A DNA stretch of 64,000 nucleotides, taken from positions 84,996-148,995 of the forward strand of contig NZ_DATMGM010000037.1 of assembly GCF_035555455.1 (NCBI RefSeq), read 5' to 3'. The number at the start of each line of letters is the position of its first letter. Position 1 is the stretch's first letter. Shown one piece after another: positions 7,161 through 57,419 of the stretch. A program made the translations under genes and the position numbers. Source of the stretch: Pelagibacterium sp. (GTDB taxonomy: Bacteria > Pseudomonadota > Alphaproteobacteria > Rhizobiales > Devosiaceae). The notes beneath the pieces are model-generated. The model did not search any database. It was not told where the DNA came from and was given only the letters and a program-made list of their open reading frames with translations.

Positions 7161-8027
7161 TCAGGTGCCACGCACCCAGCGTTGCAGAATGAGGGTCAGG
7201 GGGAAACCAAGACAGGCCAGCAGCGCGAGTGCCAAGTGGCCCTGGCTGGCAATCAGCATCGCATCGAGCAGAGGGATCGCCGCGATCAGCAGAGGTATGG
7301 CGCGGCCAAATTGCGGCTTGGGACGGGCGCGTGTGTAGCGAACCGCAACGATGTCAGCGGCGAGAAGAGCCGCAACCAGCAGCAGCAAAACCGGCTGCGC
7401 CATCGCGAGATAGAGCCCGTATAGGGGCGCGACGGCCAACGCCACAAGCGGCCACAACCTGCCGACCAGTCCAGCGCCTTCCTGCTTGGCGATGAAGGTG
7501 AGCCCCATCACATGGGCCATGAGCACCAGCGCGCCGAGCCAGAGGGCCTGTCCAGGCGCAGTGGTCAGCGCCAGGGCGGCCGCGACATAGACCATCACCC
7601 GGCACAGCCCCATCAGCACCGGGCCGAAGGCATTTTCCTTGTGATTCCTGTTGTAGGCAATGATGACGCCCGCCAAAACGAGCCCGACAAGGCCCGCAGC
7701 CAGCGCGGTTCCGGCCAGAGTTCCGGCAACGACAATGAGCACCACCGCAGCCCCGAGCAGGCCATAGCCCCAGGCGAACACCTCGCCCCGGCTGGCAAGG
7801 CCCGCCGGGATCGGACGATACGGCTGGTTGACCGCATCATACGGCGCGTCGAACGCGTCATTGAGGAACATGCCCGCGACATAGGCCAGCCCGGCACCAA
7901 GGGTGACCAGCGCCAGCGAGGCGGGGACGATACCGGCTCCAGCCAGCGCCATTCCGGCCATGGCATTGGTCAACACGGTGGGCAGGTTGGACACCCGCCC
8001 CAGCTTGAGGGCCGTTTCAAGCCTCAT
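7161..8027 (-). CDS. eboC: EboC, UbiA-family prenyltransferase
   Basis: RVSNLPT, GMFLNDAFD...D...RPIPAG aspartate-rich motif, multiple TM segments. Confidence 0.9.
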   Translation of the reverse strand: MRLETALKLGRVSNLPTVLTNAMAGMALAGAGIVPASLALVTLGAGLAYVAGMFLNDAFDAPYDAVNQPYRPIPAGLASRGEVFAWGYGLLGAAVVLIVVAGTLAGTALAAGLVGLVLAGVIIAYNRNHKENAFGPVLMGLCRVMVYVAAALALTTAPGQALWLGALVLMAHVMGLTFIAKQEGAGLVGRLWPLVALAVAPLYGLYLAMAQPVLLLLVAALLAADIVAVRYTRARPKPQFGRAIPLLIAAIPLLDAMLIASQGHLALALLACLGFPLTLILQRWVRGT

Positions 8028-9211
8028 GATTGCAGCTCTTGCCGCACCCAGTTGAGTTCGCGCGCAATCGCCGTGCTCATCGACTGGCCTCGGTACTGAT
8101 CGGGCAGCACGTCCCAGGTGTAGGTTTCCACCTCAAGGTGCTCGGAAATCGGCGCTTCCTTATGCAGCGCCAGGATGTCGCGCAGGAAAGCCTGCGTGGT
8201 CCCAAACGCTCCCATATCTTCGAGAAACACCGGCACGTGGAAATGCACCCGCCACTCGCTACCCATGGCCGATTCGATATCGGCCAGGGCCGGGCCAAGA
8301 TCGAGCCACTTGTCAAAATTTTCGCCTTTTTTGCCAACGACCTGATGGAGATAGGTGGGTTCGGCAAAGGGAGCGAGCAAGGCGGCTGTGTTTTCATCGA
8401 CTGAGGCAAAACGCAGGGCTGAGCTCAGCTGTAGCTTGAAAATCGGGATCCCTGCGGCACGCAGATCGGCGATCGATCCGCGCGGATCTTCGAACTCTAT
8501 GGCCGCGTGGCAGACGTCATAGCACAGGCCCAGATGGGCCCGCAGGGCTGCGGAAGCATCGTCGCGGGATAGGCCGGTCAGGTCCGCCAACTGCCCGACC
8601 GCCGCGTCGGCATACAGATCGCCGGTGAAAAACGCGATCGCCTCGGCGATGGTTTCGAGCATGCAGCAGGGTTCGGGTTCGAGCGCCAGGGTAATGTGCT
8701 TGCCCGTGCGCTGACGCAACTCAATAAGATGTGCAGCGTTACGCACAAGATTGGCGGCTATCTCGTCGCGCCCACCCTCGGCCCAGGGCGCGAATGTACC
8801 CGGCACCGTGCTGATGCTGCCGGTCATGCCCTCTGGCAGCAGATCGGCGAGCAGGTCGGCCAGTTGATTGGTGTAATCGAGACGAGCAGGGTCCGCCCAA
8901 TCGGGGCTATAGACATTTTCCTTCACCCGCACACCGTGGAAATCGCCATAGGGAAAGCCGTTGATCGTGAACACATAGGCGTTGTGTTCGGCAAGGAACG
9001 CCTTGAGTTCATTGAGCGAAACAGGATCGGCGAGATCATGGGCCGCCTGTGCCGACAGCCGCAGCCCGATGCCGAACGGGGCATCGCCTGCAACGTCCCT
9101 GCGGATGGCCGGGACGTTCTCGCGCAGCGCCGCAAGGGTCTGCGCCCAGCTTTCGCCCTTATGAATATTGGTGCAATAGGTCAGCTGACCCAGATCATCT
9201 GAAAGCCGCAT
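8024..9211 (-). CDS. eboE: EboE, xylose isomerase-like TIM barrel
   Basis: LTYCTNIH, TINGFPYGDFH..VKE.VY.PDW, LALEPEP, WRVHFHVP, HLEVETYTW. Confidence 0.93.
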   Translation of the reverse strand: MRLSDDLGQLTYCTNIHKGESWAQTLAALRENVPAIRRDVAGDAPFGIGLRLSAQAAHDLADPVSLNELKAFLAEHNAYVFTINGFPYGDFHGVRVKENVYSPDWADPARLDYTNQLADLLADLLPEGMTGSISTVPGTFAPWAEGGRDEIAANLVRNAAHLIELRQRTGKHITLALEPEPCCMLETIAEAIAFFTGDLYADAAVGQLADLTGLSRDDASAALRAHLGLCYDVCHAAIEFEDPRGSIADLRAAGIPIFKLQLSSALRFASVDENTAALLAPFAEPTYLHQVVGKKGENFDKWLDLGPALADIESAMGSEWRVHFHVPVFLEDMGAFGTTQAFLRDILALHKEAPISEHLEVETYTWDVLPDQYRGQSMSTAIARELNWVRQELQS

Positions 9212-10434
9212 TATGCACCTGCCCGCGACTTGAGGTTGGCCACGGCCTGGATCATCTTTTCCGCATTAATTTCATGGACTTCGAGACCCACGCCCAGCGC
9301 TTCGATGAGGGTGATGGTCAATTCGCCCCCCAGATGCTCCCTGAATTCGCGCAGGCCGTCGAGCAGGACATTCTGGCCGTCCCGCTCCTGTTCGAGCATC
9401 GGATGCCAGAGCGAAAAGCCCAGTCCCAACAGCACGGCGCGTACCCGCTCATTGTCCTCGGCGGGAAGCAGGCCGGCCAGCACCGCATATTCGGTATCGA
9501 GCGCGATGCCGATGGCAACGGCCTCGCCGTGACGCACCGAAAATTCGGTCAGCATTTCAAGGCGATGGGCCGCCCAGTGGCCGAAATCGAGCGGACGGGC
9601 GGTGCCGAATTCAAACGGATCGCCGCCCTGGCCGATCTGACGCATATGCAGTTCGGCACAGCGCCGGATCATATAGGCCATGGCCTTGGGCTCGAACCTG
9701 GCGAGGTCATCGAGGGCGGTTTCGAGCCAATTGAAGAACTCACCATCGCGGATCAGGGCCACCTTGACCGCTTCGGCAATGCCCGAGCGCTTTTCGCGGT
9801 CGGGCAGGCTTTCGATGAAGTCATAGTCGTTGAACACCGCGAAGGGCGGGACGAAGGTGCCGAAAAAGTTCTTGGAGTCGAAGAGGTTGACGCCGTTTTT
9901 CACGCCCACGCCGGAGTCGTTTTGCGACAGGACGGTGGTGGGGATGCGGATGTGGCGGATGCCGCGATGGGCTGTGGCGGCTGCCAGGCCCACAGCATCG
10001 AGCACCGCGCCACCGCCGATGGCGATGACATAGGAATGGCGGTCGATATGATGCTCGACCATAAACTGTTGCATCTCAACGATTTTTTCGAGGCCTGCTT
10101 TGATGCCCTCGCCGCCGGTCACCGGAACCGGCGCTGTAACGAGCTCGATATGGGCCGCGTGGCGGGCCGCATAGCGGGCGATTTCGTCGGCGAGAGAGGG
10201 GCGCGCGGCCAGGATTCCGGCGTCGGCGAAGATCAGGACCTTGTGGCGGCGATCGGGCTCAAGGCGCCGGAGGGTATCGACAAGGGCGGTGTTTTCGGGG
10301 TCGAAAATCCCGGTGCAGAATACTACCGGGAAGGTGTAGTCCACAGAGAAATTCTGCTGCCGTACGGTCACGGCATGGCCGTTGTGGGCATCGGACGATC
10401 GCGTGGGGGCGGCGAGAGGTTCAATCATTGCCAT
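9211..10434 (-). CDS. eboD: EboD, 3-dehydroquinate synthase-like sugar phosphate cyclase
   Basis: IGGGAVLD, PTTVLSQNDSGVGVKNG, EAVKVALI, LDFGHW.AH.LE, HGEAVAIG. Confidence 0.93.
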   Translation of the reverse strand: MAMIEPLAAPTRSSDAHNGHAVTVRQQNFSVDYTFPVVFCTGIFDPENTALVDTLRRLEPDRRHKVLIFADAGILAARPSLADEIARYAARHAAHIELVTAPVPVTGGEGIKAGLEKIVEMQQFMVEHHIDRHSYVIAIGGGAVLDAVGLAAATAHRGIRHIRIPTTVLSQNDSGVGVKNGVNLFDSKNFFGTFVPPFAVFNDYDFIESLPDREKRSGIAEAVKVALIRDGEFFNWLETALDDLARFEPKAMAYMIRRCAELHMRQIGQGGDPFEFGTARPLDFGHWAAHRLEMLTEFSVRHGEAVAIGIALDTEYAVLAGLLPAEDNERVRAVLLGLGFSLWHPMLEQERDGQNVLLDGLREFREHLGGELTITLIEALGVGLEVHEINAEKMIQAVANLKSRAGA

Positions 10435-32558: not shown

Positions 32559-32670
32559 AGGGGCCGGGCGCGGGAAGGGGTTGGCCTTCAGCCTCCTGAA
32601 ATAGATTCTTGTAGATTTACTGAATCTGATACAAAATTGCGTGAATCGTAAATTCATGCAGGGGGCGTCA

Positions 32671-33408
32671 GTGACTACCGAATTCAACTTGCCGGGCTCC
32701 TCATTCGAGGAGATTCAGAAGATTCTCAAGGGATACAGCCATGCCCCAGAGCAGGCGTCCCTCGACCAGTTGTCAAAACTGACTGGACTTCACGCAACCG
32801 TTATCAGCAGGAATAACAAGTTCCTCTCCGACATCGGCCTCATCACAGGAGGCATGAAGAAAAGCTCAACCGAGTTGGGCAAGAAACTCGGGCGTGCCCT
32901 GGACCATAAGCAGGATGCCGATGCTCAGGGCTACTGGAAAGAAGCGGTCCAAACCAATGAGAAGGTCGCTGGGCTGGTCACTACCGTGCGCATTAAAGGC
33001 GGCATGACGGAAAACGAGTTCTCTGCGCACGTGCTGTATGTGTCCGGTCAAAAGAACAACGCAGGGAACAAGACCGGAGCCCGCTGTGTCGTTGATGTCT
33101 TACTCGCAGCGAACCTTCTTCAGGAGGAGAACGGCAAACTAGTTGTGTCTTCCGCTCCCGCGAAGGAGACGTCCGCTGACCTCAAGCTCGCCGTCCTTAC
33201 GCCCACACAGCCGACGACGCAGGAGAATGGCAATGGAGGTGGAGCCGAAACCCCGCTTCCCACCCTGCCCGTGATCCCGCAAACCTCGAACCTGACGCCG
33301 CAAATCGCAATCAATATCCAGCTACACCTGCCGGAAACTGAAAATGCAGAGGTGTACGAGAAGCTGTTCAAGGCGCTCCGCGAACATCTTCTCAGTCCGA
33401 AGGAATAA
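32671..33408 (+). CDS. DUF5343-like protein (wHTH-like N-terminus, low-complexity linker, conserved C-terminal module)
   Basis: C-terminal INIQLHLPETENAEVYEKLFKALREHL resembles the DUF5343 tail. GTG start with GGGGG RBS (alternative starts 32641/32656). Confidence 0.6.
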   Translation: MTTEFNLPGSSFEEIQKILKGYSHAPEQASLDQLSKLTGLHATVISRNNKFLSDIGLITGGMKKSSTELGKKLGRALDHKQDADAQGYWKEAVQTNEKVAGLVTTVRIKGGMTENEFSAHVLYVSGQKNNAGNKTGARCVVDVLLAANLLQEENGKLVVSSAPAKETSADLKLAVLTPTQPTTQENGNGGGAETPLPTLPVIPQTSNLTPQIAINIQLHLPETENAEVYEKLFKALREHLLSPKE

Positions 33409-33411
33409 TCC

Positions 33412-33939
33412 ATGGGGCTGGAGGACTGGACCGCCCGGGCGAGCAAAGCCCGCCGCTCGGCGCATTGGGCATTGGCAAAGCACGAAAGCGCCGCCTCCCG
33501 TGTCGTGCTCTTGGAGGACTTGACCAAGAGCCTGTCGGGCACCCCGGTGGACGTACAGGACTATTTCAGCGAGGCGATTTCATGCCTTGAAAGCGAGCTG
33601 TACAGGTCCGGGATCGTCCTCGCTTGGGCGGGACACTTCCATGTGTTCTCGGAAGTCTGTTATCAGAAGCATGAAGCGGACATCCGAGCTGCGCGCCCGA
33701 AATGGACGTTCAAGGACCTTGGAGAGCTGAAAGAGGCCATCGCTGAGTCCCACTTTCTGATTGTCGCTAAAGATGTGAAGTTCACGACCAAGGCTCAGCT
33801 ACGCATTCTTGATGGTCAGCTATCGCAGCGTAACCAGTGCGCACACCCGACGCTCTACCGCCCAAGCATGAATGCGGCTATCGGGTACGTTGACGAGTTG
33901 ATCCGACAGACGTTGTCTTATCTGCCCTCGTCACCATGA
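33412..33939 (+). CDS. HEPN-domain protein (putative RNase)
   Basis: EAISC....YRSGIV.AW helix and the Rx4H motif RNQCAH(P). Confidence 0.7.
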   Translation: MGLEDWTARASKARRSAHWALAKHESAASRVVLLEDLTKSLSGTPVDVQDYFSEAISCLESELYRSGIVLAWAGHFHVFSEVCYQKHEADIRAARPKWTFKDLGELKEAIAESHFLIVAKDVKFTTKAQLRILDGQLSQRNQCAHPTLYRPSMNAAIGYVDELIRQTLSYLPSSP

Positions 33940-34670
33940 GTGGATTCTCTCTTTCCCTACTCCAAGCCGTCAGCGATTGGCAGCGCGGCGGTGATGCCAA
34001 GCAAAACAAGAAACGCGGCGAGAGGCTGAAAGAGGTGTGTGCGTCCCTTCCCGAGAAGTACCGTACTTGCTCGCTATGTTGCTTTCGACAAGTTGGTTTG
34101 CCCAAGGGCGGCGTGTGGAATCTCATTGGCGAGGATCGCCTGCCCGAGAAAATATCATCATGGACGCTCGACCTTGAAGTGGCGAAGGGGTTCAAGGGAG
34201 GCGTACCGCCCGAAGGACAGGGGTATCAGGGCGTTATCCTTTGCGTGTCTCCCCCGCCCAGCTCTGTCATCATCAATCTGCGCGAGCTATACCGTGACCC
34301 GGACTTCACTGCGGCGCTAGAACAGCACAAGGGGAGTATCACCGGCTATCACGACGGAGCCGGACGCTACGGCAACAATCAAAGCGAAGTCGTGCTTGAG
34401 GTCGCCTCTGTCACGCAGCAGGACATCTACTCGATGGGCGGTCACTCAAGCCCCTTCGAGCAACTTGTAGATGAAGCCGCAAAGCTGGCCTATGGCCCCA
34501 ACGCAACCCCAGAGCAACGCGCGGCATTGCTGTTGAAAGCAGAGCACGTCCGATCCGAAGCAGGCCCAAAATGGTTGAGCTCGGAAGCGACGCAGCGCGT
34601 GGTCATAAAGATGAAGCCTCACGCGAAGCGGCTGCGTAAGATCAAGCGTCAGCAGGACGCCGCCAAGTAA
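33936..34670 (+). CDS. ADP-ribosyltransferase-like protein (R-S-E clade)
   Basis: Ordered motifs CFRQ, ISSWT..LEVAKGF, QSEVVL; ATGA overlap with the HEPN gene. Confidence 0.6.
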   Translation: MSGFSLSLLQAVSDWQRGGDAKQNKKRGERLKEVCASLPEKYRTCSLCCFRQVGLPKGGVWNLIGEDRLPEKISSWTLDLEVAKGFKGGVPPEGQGYQGVILCVSPPPSSVIINLRELYRDPDFTAALEQHKGSITGYHDGAGRYGNNQSEVVLEVASVTQQDIYSMGGHSSPFEQLVDEAAKLAYGPNATPEQRAALLLKAEHVRSEAGPKWLSSEATQRVVIKMKPHAKRLRKIKRQQDAAK

Positions 34671-34810: not shown

Positions 34811-34882
34811 TGGCGGGCCATGCGGGATAGCGATGAGAACTATATCTACTCCATAGCCCTCCATAGCCCTCCATAGCCCTCC
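34811..34882 (+). repeat. att-like direct repeat copy 1, with 3 tandem CCATAGCCCT units
   Basis: 34811-34872 matches 43947-44008 at 55/62 nt (first 19 nt identical). Confidence 0.85.
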
Positions 34883-43946: not shown

Positions 43947-44008
43947 TGGCGGGCCATGCGGGATACCGATGGGCACGATACCTACTCCATAGCCCTCTAT
44001 ATCCCTCC
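43947..44008 (+). repeat. att-like direct repeat copy 2
   Basis: 55/62 identity to 34811-34872; an inverted TATAGAGGGC at 43926 pairs with GCCCTCTATA at 43992. Confidence 0.85.
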
Positions 44009-44145
44009 TAAATAAGGACTTCTGCTTTGCGCCTCCATTCTTGCCACTCGCTTACGGGAACCGTGGTGACGCTCCAAGCGGAAAGCTCTGCCGTAATGAC
44101 AGAGTTCGGGACCGGGCTGTCCAAGGATGCTCGTCAGCCTATTGA

Positions 44146-45633
44146 TTATTGAGGCGCACCGCGCTTTGCCTCATGATCGTGTTGAACTCGGCCTATGCCA
44201 TCCTTTCTTTGAGATGGCGGTCTGGAGATCTGTGTCAGGAGGATGATTTCTTCGCTGGGATTTTCAGTCGAGGGGTACGCAACGCCATTCTGGACGAAGC
44301 CATGATGCTTGAGGATGCGTTGTAATTTCTCATTCGCCTTCCGCGTCGTCGCGTAAACGAGTTTGGCACGCGCCGCATCTAGCAGGCTCGTGATGAGGTT
44401 CCGGGTCTGCTTTCCGCGATGCTTTTGCTCGACGAAGAGCCATCCTATTTCACGCGTGAAGTCACCAGAATTGGCCGTAGCCTGCGCCTTCTGAAAAACA
44501 CCGTTTCGGTAAGCGAGAGCCGGTTTCTTAAGAGCCCCGACGCCAACAATTGCCTTCTCATATCGAATGAAGCCCAAGACATCCGCCCTCTTGAGACGAG
44601 CCTCAATGCCATCCGCGACTTCACCTCCCTTCTTTACGAGGAGCGCGAAATCATCGAGTTCGTTTTTGGTACATTCGCCGGGCTTCTTGATTTGAACCGA
44701 GTATTTCTCCTTCTCGACCTTGTCGACGGCGATCTTGAGCGCGCCCTTGAAAATTGGGTGGAGATCTTCCTTCGTCAGCTCTTCTGCGGCCTTACCCTTA
44801 GCATTGATCGTGAAGTTGGCGGTGCCTTTCGCGATGACGTCCAGAAGCTTTCTATCGTTTAGAAGTTGGTCGACTAACTCGTCACGAAGCTTGGTCCGCT
44901 CACGCTCCGTGACGGGATCATCGCGCTTGTCCTGACGGAAAATCGTTCGAAGTCTCGAGGCAATATCGTTGGTTTCTGAGTTGATGCGAGTGACGTAAGC
45001 TTGGATGGTGTCGAGAGCGCTTTCGGTATCGCCAAGCTTGCTGTCAGCCCAGCCGAGTTGATCGGCCATGCTCTGGATGCTGACATCTAAAGAAGCTTCG
45101 AGCTGACCGAGTTCCTTTGTTATACGGCCTGCTGCGGCCTCAAACCGCTCGGCGAATGCGCGCGCTTCGCTTTCGAGGAAGATTTTCAGAAGCTCGGTTG
45201 GATGCAGTGCGCGATTACGTCGCCCATCACGCGTGCAGTAGATACCCTTGGGAGTGCAGTGTGGCTTCGTGGCGCTGCTCGGGATATCGATTCGCAAAAA
45301 CGGCTTGCCGTCGTCATTTTCGATGCTGACATCGATAGCGACCGGAGGGATGCACCCCAAAGCTTTGTTGGCTATCTGGAGTATCGTTCCATCGCCAACA
45401 TCACATCCCACCACGACGCCGACCTGTGCGCCTCCATCGTTGGCGCGTTCGTCGACGCCGGCAAGGATGGCTCCGCCACCCGCGTTGGCGAACGCGACCA
45501 AGTCTTCAGCAGACACTCCGTCAGGGCCGCGCTTGAAGTCCGCGCGATCACCTTCCCCTGCCTGCAGCAGAGTTGCGGTGTCCGCAGTTACTGTCCTAGT
45601 GATCTTATTTGAAGGCATTTCTAACACTAGCAT
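44146..45633 (-). CDS. AlbA_2 (Schlafen-like) domain - coiled coil - GNAT fusion
   Basis: GEGDRADFK, LVAFANAGGG.IL.GVDE; helical middle; C-terminal EIGWLFVEQKHRG...YATTR..N..LQRIL..HGF. Start may be 45618. Confidence 0.75.
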   Translation of the reverse strand: MLVLEMPSNKITRTVTADTATLLQAGEGDRADFKRGPDGVSAEDLVAFANAGGGAILAGVDERANDGGAQVGVVVGCDVGDGTILQIANKALGCIPPVAIDVSIENDDGKPFLRIDIPSSATKPHCTPKGIYCTRDGRRNRALHPTELLKIFLESEARAFAERFEAAAGRITKELGQLEASLDVSIQSMADQLGWADSKLGDTESALDTIQAYVTRINSETNDIASRLRTIFRQDKRDDPVTERERTKLRDELVDQLLNDRKLLDVIAKGTANFTINAKGKAAEELTKEDLHPIFKGALKIAVDKVEKEKYSVQIKKPGECTKNELDDFALLVKKGGEVADGIEARLKRADVLGFIRYEKAIVGVGALKKPALAYRNGVFQKAQATANSGDFTREIGWLFVEQKHRGKQTRNLITSLLDAARAKLVYATTRKANEKLQRILKHHGFVQNGVAYPSTENPSEEIILLTQISRPPSQRKDGIGRVQHDHEAKRGAPQ

Positions 45634-45706
45634 ATCGCGGTCTTCGAAAACACTGGAAGCTCCGCATTTTGCCTGAACTTCCTGCGTTTTCCGAACGCAG
45701 GCTCCG

Positions 45707-48700
45707 TCAGTGATCGTAGATCACGCCGATGATCGGCCGAGCATATGCCATGATCGGCATGTTCGGTGCTCCCTCAATGCTTTCGGTCGCAATGACGACA
45801 GATTCGCCGAGACCGCCGATCGTCTCAAATTGGCGCAGATACGGGAAGGCGGAGGTCACTTGAGATCCGACCCGCTTCAGGATGCTCGTGCCGTCATCCA
45901 GAGTTAGCGCGACGACCTGTCCCTCAAGCGCCGACAATTCCCCCGCCGTCAGCACTTTTCCTCCCAGTATCGTCTGACCCGGAAGCGCAAGTGGAACCGC
46001 GCTTTCTTCCCGCACCCGATAAGCCACCTCTACTTTGGCGAGGATCGGATCGCTTTCGATTTCGATGGCCTCTTCACGGCCATGGGGCGGCGGCAGATGA
46101 CTGAGCAGAAGGCCTACGACACGATGCACATCAATACCATGATCCTCGAAGGCTAGGGTAGGACGACTTTTCCTTGGGTCGGTCGCTTCGGCAGCGAGTG
46201 AAAAGCCCTCGCCATTTCTGGGACGCAGGAGACGACGGGCATAAGCCTGCTTTCCACGCCGAGCGACGACCAAACTATGGTCGCGCGCTGGCGAAGGCTC
46301 CGCCTCGACGATAGCTACGGATCCAGCCGGCATCGCGAAACCCATCGTGTCGTGCCTTATGTAAAACAGGGCCTTATCGTCGAACCAACTGCTCGAAAAA
46401 ATTTCGCACTCGGCTACCTGGCTTTCTCCCAACGGGAGATGGCCGGTGAACGCCGCGATATCTTGTCTGACGGGAATGCTGAACGCCGGTACCTTGACCG
46501 GGATTAACGTCACGACATTAGTTGGTAGCGCTTCGGTCAGTGGCTCACGCCAGCGATAGCGGCGGAATTCGCCGTGAACGCGCTCGACGCCAGCACGGAG
46601 ACGCTTCAGGTCGCCATCAACACGCTCGACATCAGCATAGCTGATCGACGCCTTGTCGTGGTGTGAAGTGTTCAGGATGCGCCGTGTGTCGGCGCCAGCA
46701 GTCATCGCCTGATCGTTGCAAAAATCATTCAACACCGGGCTGCGGAACAATTCATTCGAGCGACCGCTGACCAATGCTTTCAGTCGGTCGAACAGCGGCA
46801 CCAGTGTCGGTGCCTTGGTCGGCGCGGAGTGTGCAGGATAGGCAGGATCATCAAAGAGGTCACCGAGTCTTGCTTCGATGAAGATCCTGGCTTCGTTCGC
46901 ATAGTCCTGCGCGTAAGATGCGACGTCGGGATTTGCGATGAATAGCTGACGTTTCCGGTCCAGTTCATCGACAGCAAGCGACGTCTCGAGCGTGGCACGC
47001 GAGATATTCACCGGGTGGACGGACCGATGCGCGATCAAATCGGCGGGCCGGGATTCCTGTACCAGCGTCCGCGCAAAGCTGCGATCATGTGTCGTGGTGA
47101 CAATCTGAGCGCCGTCACTCGCGAGTTGGGTAAACGCTCGGGCTAGACGCTGTCGATTATCATAATCGAGCAGATCCTGCGGGTCATCGAGCACCAAGAT
47201 CGTTAGGCCACCACTGGTCTTCAGCACATATTCCCGGAACGCGAGGTAGAAGGCCATCAACCCCGCGCGCAGCGCAGAGGAATTTGACACGTGTTGGGCA
47301 GGAGCGCGAACAATACCTCGCCCCACTTGAATGTCGATGACGCCCTGTGCACTCATCCCTGAGGCTAGTGGCTTAGGCGCAAACGACGTGGCGTTCTGGT
47401 AGATCTGATCACGCCAATATTCCGCGCGATCATGGAGTTGGCGCCGCAAGCCCTCCACTTGCTCCTGTGCCAGCGCGCCGATGGGAACAATTTCGTCTAG
47501 CGCCTTGGCACACTGGCCACAAGCCTCGATCCGCGCAAGTTTTGTCTGCCGTGACTTGAGCGAAGCGTCGAGCCGGTCTGTGAGGGTGATCGCGGCCGAG
47601 ATAGGTGCTACTCCTTTCACGATCTCGTCAAGGCGACTGAGGCTTCCGCCGATAGAAGCGGCATGTTCCTGCATCCCCACAACGACTTCCCCTGCTGCCG
47701 TGCCTCCACCATTGCGAACCTTCTCTAATGCAGACCGCAAGGCACCAGGATTTGCTGCCATCCACTCGGCAAAGGCCAAGGCGCGTTCGATTCTGGCGAT
47801 CATGATCGGGAGCTTGCCAACTTCGGCGACCATATTTTCCGGCAGGGCCTCGCTCTCCGGTTCTTCAAACGGCGGCAGCGCAGCCGTTGCCGCCTCAACC
47901 AGCTCTTTGGCTAGAGGTTGTAACGCCCGCAGCGTGCCGCGGAAGCCGTCGGTGGCGAACAGTTCTTCTTTGAGTCCCGTATCGAGCAGTGCGCCAGGGT
48001 GCTTTGGCAGATCGCGCTCCATCTCTGCGCGAAGCGCTTCCGGCAAGTCGCGCGACAATGTTCCCGACCATCGACGTTCCCACTGGGCGATCGTCTGCGC
48101 GACGAGTTCGCCATCGTCGCGCACTTGTCGTATATGTTCCGCAACTGCCATGTTGGTATCGGGATCGATCACGCCCGCAAGTGAATGCCGACAGACGGCG
48201 CAATGGTCTTCCTGCGTCTCCCCCTGTTCGGCCATCCAGGTCGCGACGCGCGCATAGAGCTGGGTTCGACGGGCCAGCGTCGGATTGTCCGCAAGTTCCG
48301 AAAGCATCGATGCCTCGGTTCGCAGTGTCTTGAGCAAATCGCGAGCCTTCGCGATTGCCTCAGCGTCCAGCACGAGTTTCCCGATCCGCTCGATGCTGGG
48401 AAGCGTGCGCACCATCCGGAGTTGCTCGATCGCCGGCCCGATATTCTCCTCCAGGTCCTTGCGTTGGCTGGCGACCTCCGGATCAAAACTATCTCCCAAA
48501 ACCTCCCGTGCGTCGGCGAGCCCCTCGGCCTTAAGTTTCTCGAAATGGATCTGAAGTCGAATAACGACTTCCGCTGCACTCTCGTCTGCTGCGTTGGGAA
48601 GAGCATCTGCCGGTCTCATCGCCGGAAACTCCTCGATCCGCGCTTCGAGGTCACGCCTGTGCTCGGCAAAACCGTCGTCGATCCGATCGAGCTCATTCTT

Positions 48701-49651
48701 GCGCTCTTTCGTTATATCACCGGCGATCTTCTTGCTCGCTTTCCCCGCATGACGTGCCAGATCGACTAAGTCCGCGAGCCCTGTCAACTTGGCAATCGCG
48801 ACACCCAGTTCAGAGCTGCTACCGATTTGGAGAAAGGGAAGAATCCCCGGCATAGAGGTGCCCAGCCGAAACGCGATAGGGTCGACACCAAGGGTCGCGA
48901 TGTCCGGCCCCTCCTCAACCAACTTTCCGTTCGTCTTACGGGTCTGCGTGCGCCGCACCGGCGGAAGCAGGTTACCGCCCACATCGGCGAAGGTTAGTTC
49001 TACCCAAGTATCCGCCGGGATCGACTTTGCCGATGCGTCGGGCGTCCAGTCGTTGGCATGCGGCAGCGGAGTAACAGGGCTGATTATATGCTTGGTCGGG
49101 TCCACATCCCGATCAATGATGCAATCAAAATCGCGATCACCGCCCTCGGGCAGCCGCTGCGGGCGCAGCAATTGCCCTGTCAAGCACCAGATTATGGCAT
49201 TCACAAGCGAAGTCTTGCCGGATCCGTTCCACCCTTCAAACATAGTGATGGGTTTCACTGGCTCGAAAACAAAATCGTCGGGTGCGCTGGTGGCGGTCCC
49301 ATAGGCATGAAGGCCGGCAAAGCGATGTGCCACGAGCTTTACCAGCTTCAGGTGTTGCACTGCTCGGCTCGAAGCCGAAACCGGGGTAGCAAGTGTGGGA
49401 GCTACGTTGGCAATAGCGTCGATGATCGCCTCGCAGTCGGTGGCCATCACGTTGCCAGCCCACTTGCGGTTGCTTCGATACCAATTGAGTACTGATCGGG
49501 CATGGTCCGTCGCGACAGCTAAAGAGTGCCCCTCGTTGGTGGAAATCGCTCGTCCCGAAATCAGGTCGGCTAGCAGGATGTCGGTGGTCAATAGGTGCAG
49601 AGGCCGGACTGTTGTCGACACCGCACCATCACTGCCCTTATTAACTCCCAT
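45707..49651 (-). CDS. Rad50/SbcC/RloC-like ABC-ATPase with zinc hook, HEPN-like domain and tandem LexA/S24-like domains (1314 aa)
   Basis: GWNGSGKTS, CAVC, SNSSALRA, LVLDDP, TTHD; NEARIFIE...RRILNTSHH; two S24-like repeats. ATG at 49651 with GGGGAGG RBS. Confidence 0.75.
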   Translation of the reverse strand: MGVNKGSDGAVSTTVRPLHLLTTDILLADLISGRAISTNEGHSLAVATDHARSVLNWYRSNRKWAGNVMATDCEAIIDAIANVAPTLATPVSASSRAVQHLKLVKLVAHRFAGLHAYGTATSAPDDFVFEPVKPITMFEGWNGSGKTSLVNAIIWCLTGQLLRPQRLPEGGDRDFDCIIDRDVDPTKHIISPVTPLPHANDWTPDASAKSIPADTWVELTFADVGGNLLPPVRRTQTRKTNGKLVEEGPDIATLGVDPIAFRLGTSMPGILPFLQIGSSSELGVAIAKLTGLADLVDLARHAGKASKKIAGDITKERKNELDRIDDGFAEHRRDLEARIEEFPAMRPADALPNAADESAAEVVIRLQIHFEKLKAEGLADAREVLGDSFDPEVASQRKDLEENIGPAIEQLRMVRTLPSIERIGKLVLDAEAIAKARDLLKTLRTEASMLSELADNPTLARRTQLYARVATWMAEQGETQEDHCAVCRHSLAGVIDPDTNMAVAEHIRQVRDDGELVAQTIAQWERRWSGTLSRDLPEALRAEMERDLPKHPGALLDTGLKEELFATDGFRGTLRALQPLAKELVEAATAALPPFEEPESEALPENMVAEVGKLPIMIARIERALAFAEWMAANPGALRSALEKVRNGGGTAAGEVVVGMQEHAASIGGSLSRLDEIVKGVAPISAAITLTDRLDASLKSRQTKLARIEACGQCAKALDEIVPIGALAQEQVEGLRRQLHDRAEYWRDQIYQNATSFAPKPLASGMSAQGVIDIQVGRGIVRAPAQHVSNSSALRAGLMAFYLAFREYVLKTSGGLTILVLDDPQDLLDYDNRQRLARAFTQLASDGAQIVTTTHDRSFARTLVQESRPADLIAHRSVHPVNISRATLETSLAVDELDRKRQLFIANPDVASYAQDYANEARIFIEARLGDLFDDPAYPAHSAPTKAPTLVPLFDRLKALVSGRSNELFRSPVLNDFCNDQAMTAGADTRRILNTSHHDKASISYADVERVDGDLKRLRAGVERVHGEFRRYRWREPLTEALPTNVVTLIPVKVPAFSIPVRQDIAAFTGHLPLGESQVAECEIFSSSWFDDKALFYIRHDTMGFAMPAGSVAIVEAEPSPARDHSLVVARRGKQAYARRLLRPRNGEGFSLAAEATDPRKSRPTLAFEDHGIDVHRVVGLLLSHLPPPHGREEAIEIESDPILAKVEVAYRVREESAVPLALPGQTILGGKVLTAGELSALEGQVVALTLDDGTSILKRVGSQVTSAFPYLRQFETIGGLGESVVIATESIEGAPNMPIMAYARPIIGVIYDH

Positions 49652-49707
49652 CTCACCTCCCCCTAGCTCAGCGCTTACCAGATTTTCGCAGCGATACTGA
49701 CCTTTGT

Positions 49708-49959
49708 ATAGACTACGACAGTGAACGTGCCACCTCCTCTTGGAAAATCGGCGATGCAGTCTTAGCGCTGATCTTCCTCTCACGCGATCATGACGGCCGA
49801 TCGTGAAAAAGTTTTGATTGGGAAGCGATGAACAGGCTTCATGAGAAGGGGTTCATCAGCAATCCAGTCGGCGAAGCAAAATCCGTAGTCTTGACCATCG
49901 AAGGCGTCAGGCAGCCAGAAAAGCTGTTCCGCGCGATTTTTCAGGCCCACGAACAGTGA
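49708..49959 (+). pseudogene. DUF6429-like gene with a premature stop
   Basis: Frame reads IDYDSE..KIGDAVLALIFL..HDGRS*KSFDWEAMNRLHEKGFISNPVGEAKSVVLT; TGA at 49804-49806 where Trp is expected; no ATG start. Confidence 0.7.
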
Positions 49960-51935: not shown

Positions 51936-52697
51936 ATGACTACGCGCCCCCTCAATCCAGCCATTCTGGCGCTGCGTGAACGTATCACGCAGTTGGAGGG
52001 AGATGGTGCGCGCACGCGGGAGGTTCTGCCCTTCGGCGTGCCGGTTCTGGATCGGAGGTTGCCGGGTGGCGGACTGGCGCTTGGCTGCCTGCATGAGGTG
52101 GCGGGCGGCGGGAATGGCGCTGTCGACGGTGCGGCAGCCGCCTGTTTCGTGGCCGGGATAGCCGCTAGAACACCTGGCAAGGTTCTGTGGTGTGTCGCGC
52201 AGCAGGATCTGTTCGCGCCGGGACTGGAACAGGCTGGCCTCGCCCCTGATCGCGTCATCCATGTCGAGGCCGGGGACGACAAGTCGGTTCTTGCCTGCAT
52301 GGAGGAAGGGTTGCGGCATGGCGGACTCGGCGCGGTGGTCGCCGATGTCGCCCGCCTGCCTATGACCGCTTCGCGGCGGCTGCATCTGGCCGCGAAGGAG
52401 AGCGGGACCATAGGCATCGCCCTGCGGCGCTGGCGACGGCAAGCCGAGGCTAGCGATTTTGGGCAGCCGACGGCGGCGATGACGCGGTGGCGGGTGTCAG
52501 TGCTTCCGTCGCAACCCTTGCCGGTTCCGGGCGTCGGACGCGCGCGCTGGCTCATCGAGCTGATCCGCGCCCGTGCGGGGGAATCCCTCGATATTGAACT
52601 GGAGGCGTGCGATGGCTCGGGTCATCTCGGTCTTCCTGCCGACATGGCCGACAGACCGGCTGCGGCGGAAGACTGGCGACACAGCGCTGCCGGTTGA
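51936..52697 (+). CDS. imuA: ImuA
   Basis: LPFG...LDRRLPGGGLALGCLHE, EEGLRHGGL, SRRLHLAA, RARW.IELIRAR. Confidence 0.9.
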   Translation: MTTRPLNPAILALRERITQLEGDGARTREVLPFGVPVLDRRLPGGGLALGCLHEVAGGGNGAVDGAAAACFVAGIAARTPGKVLWCVAQQDLFAPGLEQAGLAPDRVIHVEAGDDKSVLACMEEGLRHGGLGAVVADVARLPMTASRRLHLAAKESGTIGIALRRWRRQAEASDFGQPTAAMTRWRVSVLPSQPLPVPGVGRARWLIELIRARAGESLDIELEACDGSGHLGLPADMADRPAAAEDWRHSAAG

Positions 52698-54135
52698 AGC
52701 GCCTCTGGTCCTCGTCGGGCGAGACCGGAACCGGCGCATCGTCACTGCGGCAGATGCGGCGGCAAAAACGCTCGGACTGCGGGTCGGGATGCCTGTCACC
52801 AAGGCGCAGGCGCTGGTGCCGGGGCTGGCCATCGAACCCGCCGACCCCAAGGCCGATGCGGAAGGCCTGGAGCGTCTCGCCCTCTGGGTATTGCAGCGCT
52901 TCAGCCCCATCGTTGCTGTCGATCTACCGGACGGCATCGTCATTGAGTCCACCGGCGCCGACCATTTACACGGCGGCGAGGCTGCCATGCTGGATGCGCT
53001 TATCGGTCGGCTGACCCTTTCGGGTGTTGCTGCCCGCGCCGCCATGGCCGACACTTGGGGCGCCGCCCATGCGCTCGCCCGATACCGGGCCGATCCGATC
53101 CTGATCTCCGAGCCGGGAAAGGCAGAGGCCATGTTGGCGCCTTTGCCGCTGGAGGCGCTTCGCCTGCCGCCTTCCATCCCGGCTGGGCTGCGCGATCTGG
53201 GTTTCAACTCCATAGGTGATCTGATCGGTCAGCCCCGCGCGCCGCTCACCCGCAGGTTCGGTCCGGAACTCGGACGCAGGCTCGACCAGGCGCTTGGGCT
53301 GGCCGCAGAGCCGATCACGCCCGTCCGTCCCGAAGACATGATCGAAGCGAGGCGCAGTTTTGCCGAGCCGATCGGTGCGGCCGAGACCATCGCGCGCTAT
53401 ATCGGCAAGCTAGTTGTCTCCCTCTGCGCTAGTCTGGAAGAACGCGGCCTGGGCGCGCGCAGGCTCGATCTGCTGTGCCATCGCATCGACAACCGCATCG
53501 AGACGGTCCGCATCGGGCTGGCCCGGCCGGTTCGCGATCCGAAACGGCTGACCCGGCTGCTTTGCGACAAGATCGAAACCATCGATCCCGGCCTCGGCAT
53601 TGAGATCATGTCGCTTGCGGCCACCATCACCGAGCCTCTGGAGGCGCGGCAGGCGGTCACTTCGCTGATCGATACGCCGGAATCTGATCTTTCGGGCCTG
53701 ATCGACACGCTGGCCAACCGGGTCGGAGCGCGAGCGATCTATCGCTTTGCCCCCGTCGCCAGCGATGTGCCGGAACGATCTGTCCGCCGCATCCCGGCCT
53801 TGGCCGAGGAGACAGGCGCAAGCTGGCCGGATCACTGGCCGCGTCCGTCGCGGCTCTTGATGCGGCCAGAGCCAATCGAGACCATGGCGCTTCTGCCCGA
53901 CCATCCGCCGAACTGGTTCTCCTGGCGCGGTGTGCGTCGGCGGGTGCGCCGGGCCGACGGCCCCGAGCGGGTGTTCGGCGAATGGTGGAAGCGCGACGCC
54001 GAACTGGTTGCGGTGCGCGATTATTTCCGCATCGAGGATGACGCCGGCGAGCGTTTCTGGATCTTCCGCGCCGGCGATGGCGAGGATGCTGCCACCGGCT
54101 CGCATCGCTGGTTCCTGCATGGAATCTTCGGATGA
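52612..54135 (+). CDS. imuB: ImuB, inactive Y-family polymerase
   Basis: [34 protein letters not shown]; start MARVISV. Confidence 0.9.
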
Positions 54136-57100
54136 CGGACGCTCCGAACAATGGCCCGCGCTATGCCGAATTGCAGGTGACGTCGCAATTCTCCTTCCTC
54201 CGCGGTGCTTCCTCGGCCGAGGAGTTGTTCGCAACCGCCGCCCTCATGGGGATCGAGGCACTCGCTGTCGTGGACCGCAACTCCGTCGCAGGGATCGTCC
54301 GTGCGCATGAGGCGGCGAAGGCCACCGGAGTCCGGCTGATCGTCGGCTGTCGCCTTGATCTGGCCTGCGGCATGTCGGTGCTGGTCTATCCCACCGACCG
54401 CGCGGCCTGGTCGCGGCTGTGCCGTCTGATGACGCTCGGCAAGGGACGGGCCGGTAAAGGGGGATGCCATCTCGAATGGGCTGATCTCGTCGCCTATGGC
54501 GAGGGTCTGATCGCGGTACTGGTACCGGACCTCGCCGATGAGGACTGTGCCCTGCGCCTGCGCCGCCTGCGCGAGGCGTTCGGGGACCGCGCCTATCTGG
54601 CGCTGACACTGCGACGCCGCCCCAATGACCAGATGCGGCTGTGGGAACTGTCACAACTGGCGCAGCAGGCGCGGGTGCCGACCGTCGTGACCAATGACGT
54701 GCTGTTCCACGAGCCCGGTCGCCGCATGTTGCAGGATGTGGTGACGGCCATCCGCCACAGCACGACAATAGACGCCCTCGGTCTTCGGCGGGAGCCCCAT
54801 GCCGACCGCTATCTCAAGCCGCCCGCCGAGATGTACCGCCTGTTCGCCCGCTGGCCCGAGGCTTTGGCGCGAACGCTGGAGATCGCGCGGCGCTGCACCT
54901 TCAGTCTTGACGAACTCCGCTACCAATATCCCGAGGAACGGGCCGATCCGACCCTGACCCCGCAGCAAACGCTGGAGCGCCTGACCTGGGAGGGCGCGGC
55001 AACCCGATATCCCGAAGGCGTTCCGGATGAGGTGACGGCGGCCCTGCGCCATGAGCTGACCCTGATCGGCAAGCTCGAATATGCTCCCTATTTTCTGACC
55101 GTGAACAGCATTGTCCGCTTCGCGCGTTCGAAGGGCATCCTCTGCCAGGGGCGTGGCTCGGCGGCGAACTCCGCCGTCTGTTATGTTCTGGGCATCACCG
55201 CCATTGATCCCGGCCGCAACGATCTCCTGTTCGAGCGCTTCGTTTCCGAAGAACGTCGCGAGCCACCCGACATCGACGTGGATTTCGAGCACGAGCGACG
55301 CGAAGAGGTCATCCAGTGGGTCTATAATCATTATGGCCGAGAGCATGCCGCGCTGACCGCCACCGTCATCCGCTATCGCTCCAAGGGAGCGCTGCGTGAT
55401 GTCGGCAAGGCCATGGGCCTGCCCGAGGATCTGATCCAGTCCCTGTCCGGCCAGCTCTGGGCCTGGTCGGAAACCGGCGTCTCGGATCAGCAGATCCGTG
55501 AGCTGAACCTCAACCCCGAAGATCGACGCCTGCGTCTGACCCTGGAACTGGCTGCCCAGCTCCGCGGTGCGCCGCGCCATCTGTCGCAGCATCCCGGCGG
55601 TTTCGTCCTGACCCACGACCGGCTCGATGATCTTGTGCCGATCGAACCTGCCGCCATGGCGGATCGCCAGATCATCGAATGGGATAAGGACGATATCGAC
55701 GCCCTGTGTTTCATGAAGGTGGATGTGCTGGCGCTCGGCATGCTGACCTGTATGCGCAAGGGGCTCGACCTGATTGCGGAGCACAAGGGGATCGAACTCG
55801 ATCTGGCGACGATCCCGGCCGAAGACCCACGCACCTATGCCATGATCCGCAAGGCGGACACGCTCGGCACATTCCAGATCGAGTCTCGCGCGCAGATGTC
55901 GATGCTGCCTCGCCTGAAACCACGCACCTATTACGACCTCGTGGTGCAAGTCGCCATCGTCCGGCCCGGACCAATCCAGGGTGACATGGTTCATCCCTAT
56001 CTCCGCCGCCGCGAAGGGCTGGAAGAGGTTCATTACCCAACGCCGGAGCTGGAGAAGGTGCTGGGAAAAACGTTGGGCGTGCCCTTGTTTCAGGAACAGG
56101 CCATGCGCGTGGCCATCGAATGCGCGGGCTTCACCCCCGGCGAAGCCGACCTGCTGCGCAAGAGCATGGCGACCTTCAAGTTCACCGGCGGGGTCTCGAA
56201 GTTCCGCGACAAGCTGATCGAGGGCATGGTGGCCAATGGCTATGAACAAGAGTTTGCCGAACGCACCTTCCGGCAGTTGGAGGGCTTCGGCTCCTACGGT
56301 TTCCCCGAGAGCCATGCCGCATCCTTCGCACTCGTGGCCTATGCGTCGGCTTGGTTGAAATGCTGGCACCCCGATGCCTTCTGCGCCGCGCTTTTGAACT
56401 CTCAGCCCATGGGCTTCTATGCCCCGGCGCAGATTGTTCGCGATGCGCGCGATCATGGCGTCGAGGTGCGTCCGGTCTGCGTTAATGCCTCCCGCTGGGA
56501 CTGCACGCTGGAGCCGGCCGGCGACGAAACTCGCTTCGCGGTGCGCCTTGGTCTGCGCATGGTCAAGGGGCTGGCCAATGCCCATGCCGGCGCCATTGCC
56601 GCCGCACGGGCCGATCAGCCCTTCACATCGGTTGACGACCTTTGGCGCCGTTGCGGCGTTCCGGTCGCGGCATTGACGAGAATCGCCGAAGCCGATGGTT
56701 TTCGTCCGGCCTTTGGCCTCGCCCGTCGGGAGGCGCTTTGGGCCATCAAGGGCCTGCGCGATGAAGAACTGCCGCTCTTCGCCGCCGCCTCAGCGCGGGC
56801 GGGCGCGACCATTGCGGAGGTCAAAGAGCCTGCGATCAGCTTGCGCGCCATGGCTGCCGGGCGCGAGGTGGTCGAGGACTACAGCCATACCGGCCTGTCG
56901 CTGCGCCGCCATCCGGTTTCCTTCCTGCGTGCTGATCTCGCGAGACGTCGGATCGTCTCCTGTGCCGAGGCCATGGGGTCACGCGATGGGCGATGGCTGG
57001 AAGCGGCCGGGATCGTTCTCGTTCGCCAGCGTCCCGGCTCGGCCAAAGGGGTGATGTTCGTAACCGTGGAAGATGAAACCGGCATCGCCAATCTCGTCGT

Positions 57101-57419
57101 CTGGACCAAGGTGTTTGAGAAGTTCCGCCGTATCATCCTGTCCTCGGGCATGATCGCCGTGAAGGGCCGTATCCAGCGCGAGGGCGAGGTTGTGCATCTC
57201 GTCGCGCATAGGATCACCGATCTGTCACGGGAACTGGCGAGCATCGGGCAGCGGGACGCCGCCTTTCCGCTGCCGCATGGTCGTGGCGATGAATTCCACC
57301 ACGGATCGTCCTCGCCAGATCCCCGCGGTCAGCCACCCAAGGTGTCGAGAACGCGCGATATGTATGTGCGCGACCTGCATATCGACGCCATCAGGGTCAG
57401 AACGCGGGATTTTAAGTGA
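54132..57419 (+). CDS. dnaE2: Error-prone DNA polymerase DnaE2/ImuC
   Basis: [46 protein letters not shown]-terminal OB fold and SRDF-like tail (TRDFK). Confidence 0.95.

Follow-up and report, generated by a model that had tools for sequence, protein, structure and literature searches.

When a bacterial gene joins a Schlafen-type nuclease to the fold of an acetyltransferase, does it encode a complete defence system in a single polypeptide, and what would the second fold contribute? This question is raised by an open reading frame (ORF) in a 64,000-nucleotide stretch of Pelagibacterium sp. DNA (Alphaproteobacteria, Rhizobiales, Devosiaceae; NCBI RefSeq assembly GCF_035555455.1, contig NZ_DATMGM010000037.1, positions 84,996 to 148,995 of the forward strand), referred to here as the window. 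Prokaryotic Schlafens have been shown to be anti-phage tRNases only in 2025-2026, with specificity residing in the fused domain, and hardly any of their architectures have been tested. The original prediction for this ORF, made from the sequence without database searches, described an N-terminal AlbA_2 core, a helical segment of about 150 residues and a C-terminal acetyltransferase of the GNAT family, and proposed a one-component defence protein, possibly partnered with the ATPase encoded immediately upstream. Based on analogy with characterised prokaryotic Schlafens (pSlfn), we favour, with a rough probability of 0.55, the reading that this Schlafen-GNAT protein would act alone as a defensive tRNase whose helices drive its assembly and whose GNAT module, probably without catalysis of its own, gates it.

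A Schlafen-type nuclease core on a helical stalk

The N-terminal part of the protein represents a nuclease core of the Schlafen type in which, as judged from sequence, the catalytic residues E27, D32, K34, and E62 are conserved. Pfam SLFN_AlbA_2 (PF04326) covers residues 28-143 with 37.2 bits against a cut-off of 25.3, and a model of the N-terminal 150 residues, with a predicted local distance difference test (pLDDT) score of 94, retrieved AlbA_2 or SLFN structures in all of the first 29 places of a Foldseek search of the PDB (2kyy, 3lmm, and SLFN5, 11, 12, 13, and 14). Profile searches with the N-terminal part matched 2kyy (E = 6e-5), SLFN11 (1e-3), the CRISPR-associated Schlafen-Csx15 protein CbCash (2e-3; PDB 9ylu), and SLFN14. 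The active site was compared through sequence-to-structure alignments together with template modelling (TM) scores. All three strings on which the AlbA_2 assignment had initially been based, i.e., GEGDRADFK (residues 26-34), VAFANAGGG (46-54), and GVDE (59-62), are in place; in profile alignments E27-x4-D32-F-K34 aligns with E-x4-E-F-K of SLFN14 as well as with E17-x4-D22-L-K24 of CbCash, and G-V-D-E62 aligns with GVDD of SLFN11 and SLFN14, with E62 at the position of the second D, equivalent to D252 of SLFN11. An alignment of 129 sequences shows K34 without exception, with conservation of 90% or more for E27 and D32; in a wider set of 147 sequences E27 and K34 are again at least 90% conserved and D32 falls outside the nearly invariant columns, and E62 is invariant in the family alignments examined for it. 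The aspartate at the second acidic position, which had been considered unusual, is normal for prokaryotes, since the published prokaryotic Schlafen consensus, E-x4-(E/D)-x-K, permits either residue (PMC13056530) and since CbCash, a proven tRNase whose E17Q/D22N form is catalytically dead, uses E17 and D22 (PMC13462974).

The AlphaFold2 model of the whole protein, which was built on 129 homologues and has a mean pLDDT of 89.3, places an alpha/beta domain at residues 1-138, long helices at residues 140-195, 199-230, 235-263, and 283-304, and a GNAT fold thereafter. The helical segment (model residues 140-304) comes to about 165 residues, in line with the roughly 150 that had been anticipated. 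Residues 145-245 of this stalk form a first hairpin, which bears two motifs, MxDQLGWAD and FRQDxRxDP, and is under stronger constraint than any other portion of the protein; residues 246-309 are variable. When the present copy was compared with two Mesorhizobium copies, the ratio of nonsynonymous to synonymous substitution rates (dN/dS) was lowest in the first helical hairpin, at 0.06-0.11, and lay at 0.10-0.12 in the GNAT domain and 0.12-0.13 in the nuclease; all three domains are thus under purifying selection, with dN/dS values of about 0.1. Pfam, the AlphaFold2 model, Foldseek, and the profile alignments together bear out the fusion of a Schlafen-type core to helices and a GNAT fold, and by its sequence and predicted structure the protein appears to have every mark of a prokaryotic Schlafen. 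No NCBIfam family matches the protein, and it carries no helix-turn-helix (HTH) or other regulator domain. The features are listed in Table 1.

Table 1. Features of the Schlafen-GNAT gene and its surroundings (window positions; residues numbered from the first codon of the ORF)
Feature	Position	Strand	Basis or remark
Whole ORF	44146..45633	-	Single ORF of 495 aa including the stop codon; homologues align from the equivalent of M6, placing the probable start at 45618 (490 aa)
Schlafen/AlbA_2 nuclease domain, residues 6-145	45199..45618	-	PF04326, domain model, Foldseek, profile matches
Catalytic motif G-E27-G-D-R-A-D32-F-K34	45532..45558	-	Instance of E-x4-(E/D)-x-K
G59-V-D61-E62	45448..45459	-	E62 as third acidic residue; hidden Markov model alignment to SLFN11 and SLFN14
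Helical stalk, residues about 145-309	44707..45201	-	AlphaFold2 helices, invariant columns, dN/dS
GNAT-fold domain, residues 311-468	44230..44703	-	AlphaFold2, Foldseek, family profile
Degenerate acetyl-CoA pyrophosphate loop H405-R-G-K-Q-T410	44404..44421	-	Alignment with stand-alone and fused relatives
C-terminal tail, residues 469-495, disordered and fast-evolving	44149..44229	-	pLDDT about 41-42; dN/dS 0.4-0.7 against the two Mesorhizobium copies
DNA common with the Mesorhizobium copies	44077..45644	.	blastn, 86-88% identity
62-nt att-like direct repeat	43947..44008	+	Partner at 34811-34872; context boundary outside the gene

The GNAT module and its acetyl-CoA loop

The C-terminal acetyltransferase of the original prediction holds as a fold. 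Pfam Acetyltransf_1 matches residues 356-446 with 19.7 bits, just below its cut-off of 20.7, and relatives carry precomputed PF00583 matches; the full topology, beta1-alpha1-alpha2-beta2-4-alpha3-beta5-alpha4-beta6-7, is complete at residues 306-463 of the AlphaFold2 model. A Foldseek search with the whole model returned GNATs only (among them ElaA 5z6n with a TM-score of 0.78, PA 1xeb, PaiA, and SbzI), with more than 300 GNAT fold matches at E < 1e-3, and a profile of the GNAT family matched 3bln at E = 1e-7 as well as YncA and phosphinothricin-type acetyltransferases in the PDB. The protein is thus of the GNAT fold and a putative acetyltransferase at most. Alignments show that the stand-alone relatives in Aeromonas and Pseudomonas syringae have a canonical loop, R-x-x-G-x-G/A, and that most of the fused family reads R-x-K-G-Q-M/L; in the present copy and its 88%-identical relatives the loop is H-R-G-K-Q-T, in which a one-residue deletion removes the conserved glycine, and it departs from the acetyl-CoA consensus Q/R-x-x-G-x-G/A. 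Because the loop is degenerate in the fused family and the glycine is lost in the present copy, we read the GNAT as a probable sensor rather than a robust acetyltransferase; this non-catalytic role is the weakest part of the reading that we favour. The low dN/dS of the domain does indicate that it is functional in some sense, though not necessarily as a standard acetyltransferase.

With regard to the tRNA-acetylating toxins to which the GNAT had initially been compared, the link finds no support: none of these toxins is found among the 21 PDB profile matches at E <= 1 or among the top 50 fold matches, and antitoxin-like neighbours are lacking, as no conserved small gene, and hence no candidate for a ribbon-helix-helix (RHH)/DUF1778 antitoxin, is present in any locus and the block of DNA common to close copies holds this gene only. 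TacT, AtaT, ItaT, and KacT do have the GNAT fold in common with the protein described here, and tRNA is a plausible target of both halves of the latter, but they differ in being encoded with an RHH/DUF1778 antitoxin, in showing no detectable specific similarity to it, and in the loop, which is degenerate here; the protein thus does not appear to be a toxin of the TacT/AtaT type.

Relatives of the GNAT half also occur alone. A tblastn search of plasmids found 17 stand-alone GNAT genes, whose products of about 160 aa are 31-38% identical to residues 305-468. They reside on plasmids of Rhizobium, Aeromonas salmonicida, Pseudomonas syringae/cerasi, Vibrio, and Agrobacterium, several of them beside genes for (serine) recombinases or insertion sequence (IS) genes. 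In these proteins (e.g., those of pRlX2, pAsa5-type, P. syringae, and Agrobacterium plasmids) homology extends across the entire GNAT domain; unlike the fused form, they have a canonical loop and no nuclease. The stand-alone gene on Rhizobium beringeri pRlX2 (locus L084) lies beside a DUF3800 protein gene and an IS66 transposase gene, that on A. salmonicida plasmid 5 (L085) lies beside a recombinase-family gene, and that on P. syringae p9853_A (L086) lies beside a recombinase-family gene and an IS3 element; the plasmid GNATs and their neighbours may represent an uncharacterised module of mobile elements.

Distribution, single-gene transfer, and genomic setting

A word-indexed search yielded 164 relatives; those listed measure about 450-500 aa and align over more than 90% of their length with 44-88% identity. 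About 120 clusters of proteins with 45-88% identity exist, nearly all from Alphaproteobacteria, with hosts that include Mesorhizobium, Rhizobium, Sinorhizobium, Rhodobacter, Hoeflea, Devosia, and sphingomonads. Of 61 genomes searched, namely that of the window, 17 from its genus, and others from its family or order, just the first carries the gene (0 of the 60 relatives). One full-length homologue, at 52% identity, was found by tblastn of plasmids, on a 533-kb plasmid of Devosia neptuniae, and none was found in phage genomes. Judging from these comparisons, the distribution is sporadic and horizontally transferred, with a single gene as the unit. A HMMER scan with residues 6-300 recovered 764 relatives, of which 153, counted as 50%-identity clusters, at E <= 1e-30; most are 300-340 aa long and consist of AlbA_2 and the helical part only, and a length that would accommodate the GNAT is reached in only about eight 50%-identity clusters. 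Pfam identified AlbA_2 in 141 of 147 representatives, GNAT in 2-3, and Hypoth_Ymh in one. Since most relatives are GNAT-less, the ancestral unit consists of the nuclease and the helical hairpin, with the GNAT added in an alphaproteobacterial subclade. The single representative with Hypoth_Ymh (E = 1e-40), a domain that we take to be HEPN-related, indicates that a different second domain can be attached as well. A 3711-aa protein (P0140) with "29 stretches" was considered as a giant AlbA_2 array and rejected; it is a secreted protein of MBG_2 repeats and the match is spurious.

The two halves of the fusion can also be found as neighbours. In Christiangramia gaetbulicola (Flavobacteriia; L023, NZ_QBKQ01000002.1), a gene for a 320-aa AlbA_2-helix protein (7962-8924) is followed 166 bp downstream by a separate gene for a 158-aa GNAT of the same subfamily (9090-9566), which matches the fused GNAT at 3e-18 by tblastn and 4e-30 by profile; this is the sole split case among 55 short-homologue loci, and the occurrence of such a pair in a distant phylum argues that the nuclease and GNAT modules work together. 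Conversely, the 87%-identical copy of Pleomorphomonas diazotrophica (L004 8001-8930) ends at about residue 301, at the boundary between helices and GNAT, and DNA homology stops at window position 44730. A Sphingomonas copy (L018) is split into two frames and the copies at L016 and L036 are shortened too; these, like the Pleomorphomonas copy, may be natural GNAT-less forms or pseudogenes. The 88%-identical copy of Mesorhizobium sp. BR1-1-3 (L082 10001-11434) has the substitutions C126Y and N140I at family-invariant positions and a three-residue deletion (ELG) in GNAT strand beta4, and may be decaying.

The DNA that the window has in common with the Mesorhizobium copies comprises the gene plus 69 bp on its 3' side and 11 bp on its 5' side (blastn, 86-88% identity), and an all-against-all comparison of 13 full-length and 40 short-homologue loci revealed no conserved neighbour, apart from a synteny confined to the Fermentibacteria lineage. 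From these alignments, the gene is thus a single-gene mobile cassette, and the proposal of a one-component unit is upheld. By contrast, the partnership with the upstream ATPase that had been considered possible is not: the 1358-aa ATPase-S24 gene (45707-49783, minus strand), though confirmed 73 bp upstream on the same strand, is absent by tblastn from all 80 related loci, and what lies upstream of the Mesorhizobium copies of 88% identity is different, with unknown genes at one locus and an ART-like gene and an MNT/HEPN-type pair at the other. As the ATPase is missing from related loci and homology ends at the gene, ATPase-S24 is to be seen as a neighbour rather than a partner. Directly after its stop codon lies a hairpin with a 7-bp stem (CCTGCGT-TCGGAAA-ACGCAGG; 45681-45701, minus strand) and no U-tract, which may serve for weak termination or for processing of the RNA between the two genes. 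A search of the 73-bp gap gave no sigma-70-like promoter, and the Schlafen-GNAT gene may be transcribed by read-through in this genome.

The setting of the gene in the window is that of a defence island on a mobile element. Pfam and PADLOC identify a run of same-strand genes that comprises HamB/HamA (Hachiman), a short prokaryotic Argonaute (pAgo) with SIR2-APAZ, SoFic, the Schlafen-GNAT gene itself, and the LmuB/Rad50-like ATPase-S24, followed by DinB and SRAP. The 62-nt direct repeat, whose two copies are 89% identical, brackets the block of SoFic, SIR2-APAZ with short pAgo, and Hachiman and ends 138 bp from the stop codon of the Schlafen-GNAT gene, which lies just outside the block; the GC content is lowest at this place (0.554). 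Most likely, the gene is carried by an integrative conjugative element (ICE), as cargo at its end and within a defence island.

Comparable settings are found elsewhere. The Rhodobacter capsulatus homologue lies beside GmrSD, HipBA, and AbiEii; the Rhizobium acaciae homologue lies near SNIPE, a large serine recombinase, and ParB/RepB; the Sphingopyxis homologue lies inside an ICE; sphingomonad homologues lie directly upstream of HNH, VRR-NUC, or PIN genes; and one Mesorhizobium locus has MNT-HEPN, ART, and Vsr neighbours. On the D. neptuniae plasmid (NZ_CP104964.1; L087 1576-8186), a putative SspABCD cluster for phosphorothioation, consisting of genes for a class V aminotransferase (cysteine desulfurase-like), a DUF4007 protein, a 1149-aa hypothetical protein, and a PAPS reductase, is directly upstream of the homologue, which would thus occupy what we take to be the usual slot of Ssp restriction partners. 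Overall, the window and about 8 of some 13 homologous loci with annotation clearly associate the gene with defence or mobile genes, a count made with no background correction. PADLOC run on 132 pooled neighbours gave few defence matches (type I restriction-modification, HNH, mad5) and told less than Pfam domains viewed locus by locus; chromosomal copies without marks of mobile elements also occur. On these uncorrected counts, the association with defence looks good, though not universal.

Proposed mode of action, competing explanations, and known systems

On its own, the protein most likely constitutes a system against phages or mobile elements, with the defence function being what we infer. 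In the mechanism that we propose, the long helices would bring the protein into a homodimer or higher oligomer, by analogy with CbCash, the activity of which needs oligomerisation via its fused domain (PMC13462974); an RNA-binding clamp would thereby arise from at least two AlbA_2 domains of one lobe each, as it does from the two tandem lobes in eukaryotic Schlafens and from oligomerisation in CbCash. The nuclease would be kept inactive at rest, and the GNAT would serve as a regulatory or sensor module that binds a phage-derived protein or an acyl-CoA-like metabolite and holds or releases the nuclease; once triggered, the nuclease would cut tRNA, and possibly rRNA too, such that translation stops and the infection is aborted. 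pSlfn proteins, 97% of which are fusions, provide the precedent, as those with varied C-terminal fusions defend against phages by tRNA cleavage and the fused domain senses the trigger (PMC13056530).

Several observations weigh against this interpretation. The constraint on the GNAT domain equals that on the nuclease and fits catalysis as well as binding, and neither a hydrophobic residue nor a one-residue deletion in the P-loop proves that acetyl-CoA binding is lost. No PADLOC model matches the protein, and several homologues lie amid housekeeping or metabolic genes. In addition, a distant subclade of short AlbA_2 proteins (170-290 aa) in Fermentibacteria is syntenic in about 15 metagenome-assembled genomes (MAGs; L041, L045-L050, L053, L055, L057-L060, L062, and L066), in the manner of a core gene, with SHOCT-like, DUF2089 zinc-ribbon/HTH, and DUF4097 genes downstream and SbcD/SbcC-like genes upstream in about seven of the MAGs; this synteny suggests that AlbA_2-helix proteins may not all be defensive.

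An unlikely alternative is that the protein is a dual-enzyme effector, in which an active GNAT and the nuclease both hit the translation apparatus (with aminoacyl-tRNA, an RNA end, or a translation factor envisaged as GNAT substrates) or in which the GNAT auto-acetylates the nuclease, e.g., at Lys34, as a metabolic acetyl-CoA switch. The completeness of the GNAT fold and its strong purifying selection, the canonical acetyl-CoA loop of the stand-alone relatives, the Hypoth_Ymh member, which suggests that an added domain can be of an effector type, and the functional partnership for which the Christiangramia pair argues all speak for such an enzyme; by contrast, the loop is altered in most of the fused family and lacks its glycine here, the PDB profile matches include no known tRNA-acetylating toxin, most of the clade (about 300 aa) works without a GNAT, and the close Pleomorphomonas relative stops right before it. 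Also unlikely is a non-immune role, as a nucleic-acid-binding or RNA-processing protein or a regulatory acetyltransferase in which AlbA_2 is a DNA- or RNA-binding module only. Database names such as "AlbA family DNA-binding domain-containing protein" agree with this role, as do the homologues amid housekeeping genes and the Fermentibacteria relatives beside SbcCD-like genes, and 30% of pSlfn genes are located away from defence genes (PMC13056530); nonetheless, conservation of E27, K34, and E62 is complete or at least 90% throughout the alignments (D32 reaches 90% in the 129 sequences but falls outside the nearly invariant columns of the 147), the distribution is very patchy (1 of 61 genomes), the gene has been transferred singly into ICEs, plasmids, and defence islands, and the protein has no HTH or other regulator domain.

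The most novel of the readings, though an unlikely one, is a two-enzyme machine in which nuclease and GNAT occupy one scaffold and form an acylation-coupled immune RNase switch; an active or acyl-CoA-binding GNAT would acetylate the catalytic lysine or tRNA, or would read the acetyl-CoA state. We know of no Schlafen for which such a switch has been described. Were it true, tRNA cleavage would be gated by a metabolic signal that phage infection perturbs, and the Flavobacterium split pair and the plasmid GNATs would mark a reusable "GNAT sensor" module of mobile elements.

It is quite improbable that the gene is a selfish addiction cassette, akin to a toxin-antitoxin pair within one molecule, whose nuclease is restrained by its own GNAT or helices and whose role is to stabilise its host ICE or plasmid instead of fending off phages. 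Its presence as cargo on ICEs and plasmids, its transfer as a cassette of one gene, and the toxin-antitoxin modules (HipBA, AbiEii, MNT-HEPN) that are often its neighbours would all suit this explanation, but we know of no mechanism for post-segregational killing by a single stable polypeptide. Moreover, validated pSlfn proteins act in phage defence (PMC13056530, PMC13552941). The occurrence of the gene at chromosomal sites without mobile-element marks also counts against addiction. Finally, a two-gene system, in which the Rad50/LmuB-like ATPase-S24 would be the sensor and the Schlafen-GNAT protein the effector, would draw on the orientation and spacing of the genes, the gap in which no sigma-70-like promoter was found, the LmuB-type PADLOC match of the ATPase, and the pairing of SMC-like ATPases with variable effectors in Lamassu systems, but is very improbable, being largely refuted by comparative genomics (the ATPase is missing from the related loci and from the surroundings of the copies with 88% identity, DNA homology stops 11 bp before the ATG, and a hairpin follows the ATPase stop codon), such that the protein does not appear to form part of a Lamassu-like pair.

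Among known systems, the protein that we read as a gated, stand-alone tRNase is most readily compared with pSlfn1-55 (e.g., RorSlfn5 and EcoSlfn7; Perez Taboada et al., Nat Microbiol 2026, PMC13056530), which have the same single AlbA_2/Slfn domain with E-x4-(E/D)-x-K and a C-terminal accessory fusion, are often located in defence islands, and have phage-triggered tRNA cleavage as their proven mechanism; however, their accessory domains are Ig-like, DUF262, histidine-kinase, or HTH domains rather than a helical stalk and a GNAT fold, and they come from Enterobacterales whereas the Schlafen-GNAT proteins are alphaproteobacterial. CbCash (PMC13462974) likewise has a single Slfn domain with the E-x4-D pair (E17/D22, corresponding to E27/D32) and a fused C-terminal domain, and is an oligomerisation-dependent, ligand-gated tRNase; it differs in being gated by the cA4 of type III CRISPR via its Csx15 Rossmann-like domain, whereas the present protein has helices and a GNAT and no CRISPR or cyclase partner. 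Eukaryotic SLFN11, 12, 13, and 14, which are antiviral tRNA/rRNA nucleases, have the same fold and three acidic catalytic residues, but their cores consist of two tandem lobes, with a linker and helicase domains, as opposed to one lobe here, Foldseek TM-scores are only about 0.4-0.5, and the spacer between FK and AFAN is 8 residues shorter in the present protein. The AlbA_2-helix proteins of about 310 aa (Flavobacteriia, Bacillota, Gallionella, Alteromonas, and others) have the nuclease and first hairpin in common with it, at 33-45% identity over residues of about 10-300, but are stand-alone genes at variable loci without a GNAT, except that Christiangramia has one as a separate downstream gene. 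Bacterial Schlafen defence has already been published, and the combination of helical stalk and GNAT may be a new variant: the main text of PMC13056530 does not name GNAT, the 55 architectures of which are listed in its supplementary table, the fusion is not described in the ParA preprint or in PMC12839542, although each names both Schlafen and GNAT, and PMC13552941 contains neither GNAT nor acetyltransferase.

The main value of the locus lies in the AlbA_2-helix clade that it defines and in the natural fused, split (Christiangramia), and truncated (Pleomorphomonas) forms of that clade, which provide material for comparison. It adds to the known Schlafens a compact clade of AlbA_2 plus helical hairpin, which comprises 153 or more 50%-identity clusters (E <= 1e-30) and among whose members we could identify none that is characterised, and a subclade that has recruited a GNAT enzyme fold also found stand-alone on plasmids. 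The family could reveal the way in which Schlafens with a single lobe assemble, and whether gating of an immune RNase by a fold that binds acyl-CoA is feasible, and it offers a clean example of a single-gene defence cassette that moves among ICEs, plasmids, and chromosomes of rhizobia and sphingomonads; if the protein were merely another pSlfn with an inert sensor domain, the result would be a useful annotation rather than a discovery.

Two minor observations concern the surroundings of the gene. At the left edge of the island (window 32641-34670, plus strand) lie three small genes, the first of which matches PADLOC PDC-M34A (2e-9) and the other two of which have no family match. In addition, an imuA-imuB-dnaE2 mutagenesis cassette (window 52060-57304) is 72% identical to one in Mesorhizobium sp. 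BR1-1-3 (L082 13737-18963); in both genomes it is located within a few kb of the Schlafen-GNAT gene, on opposite sides.

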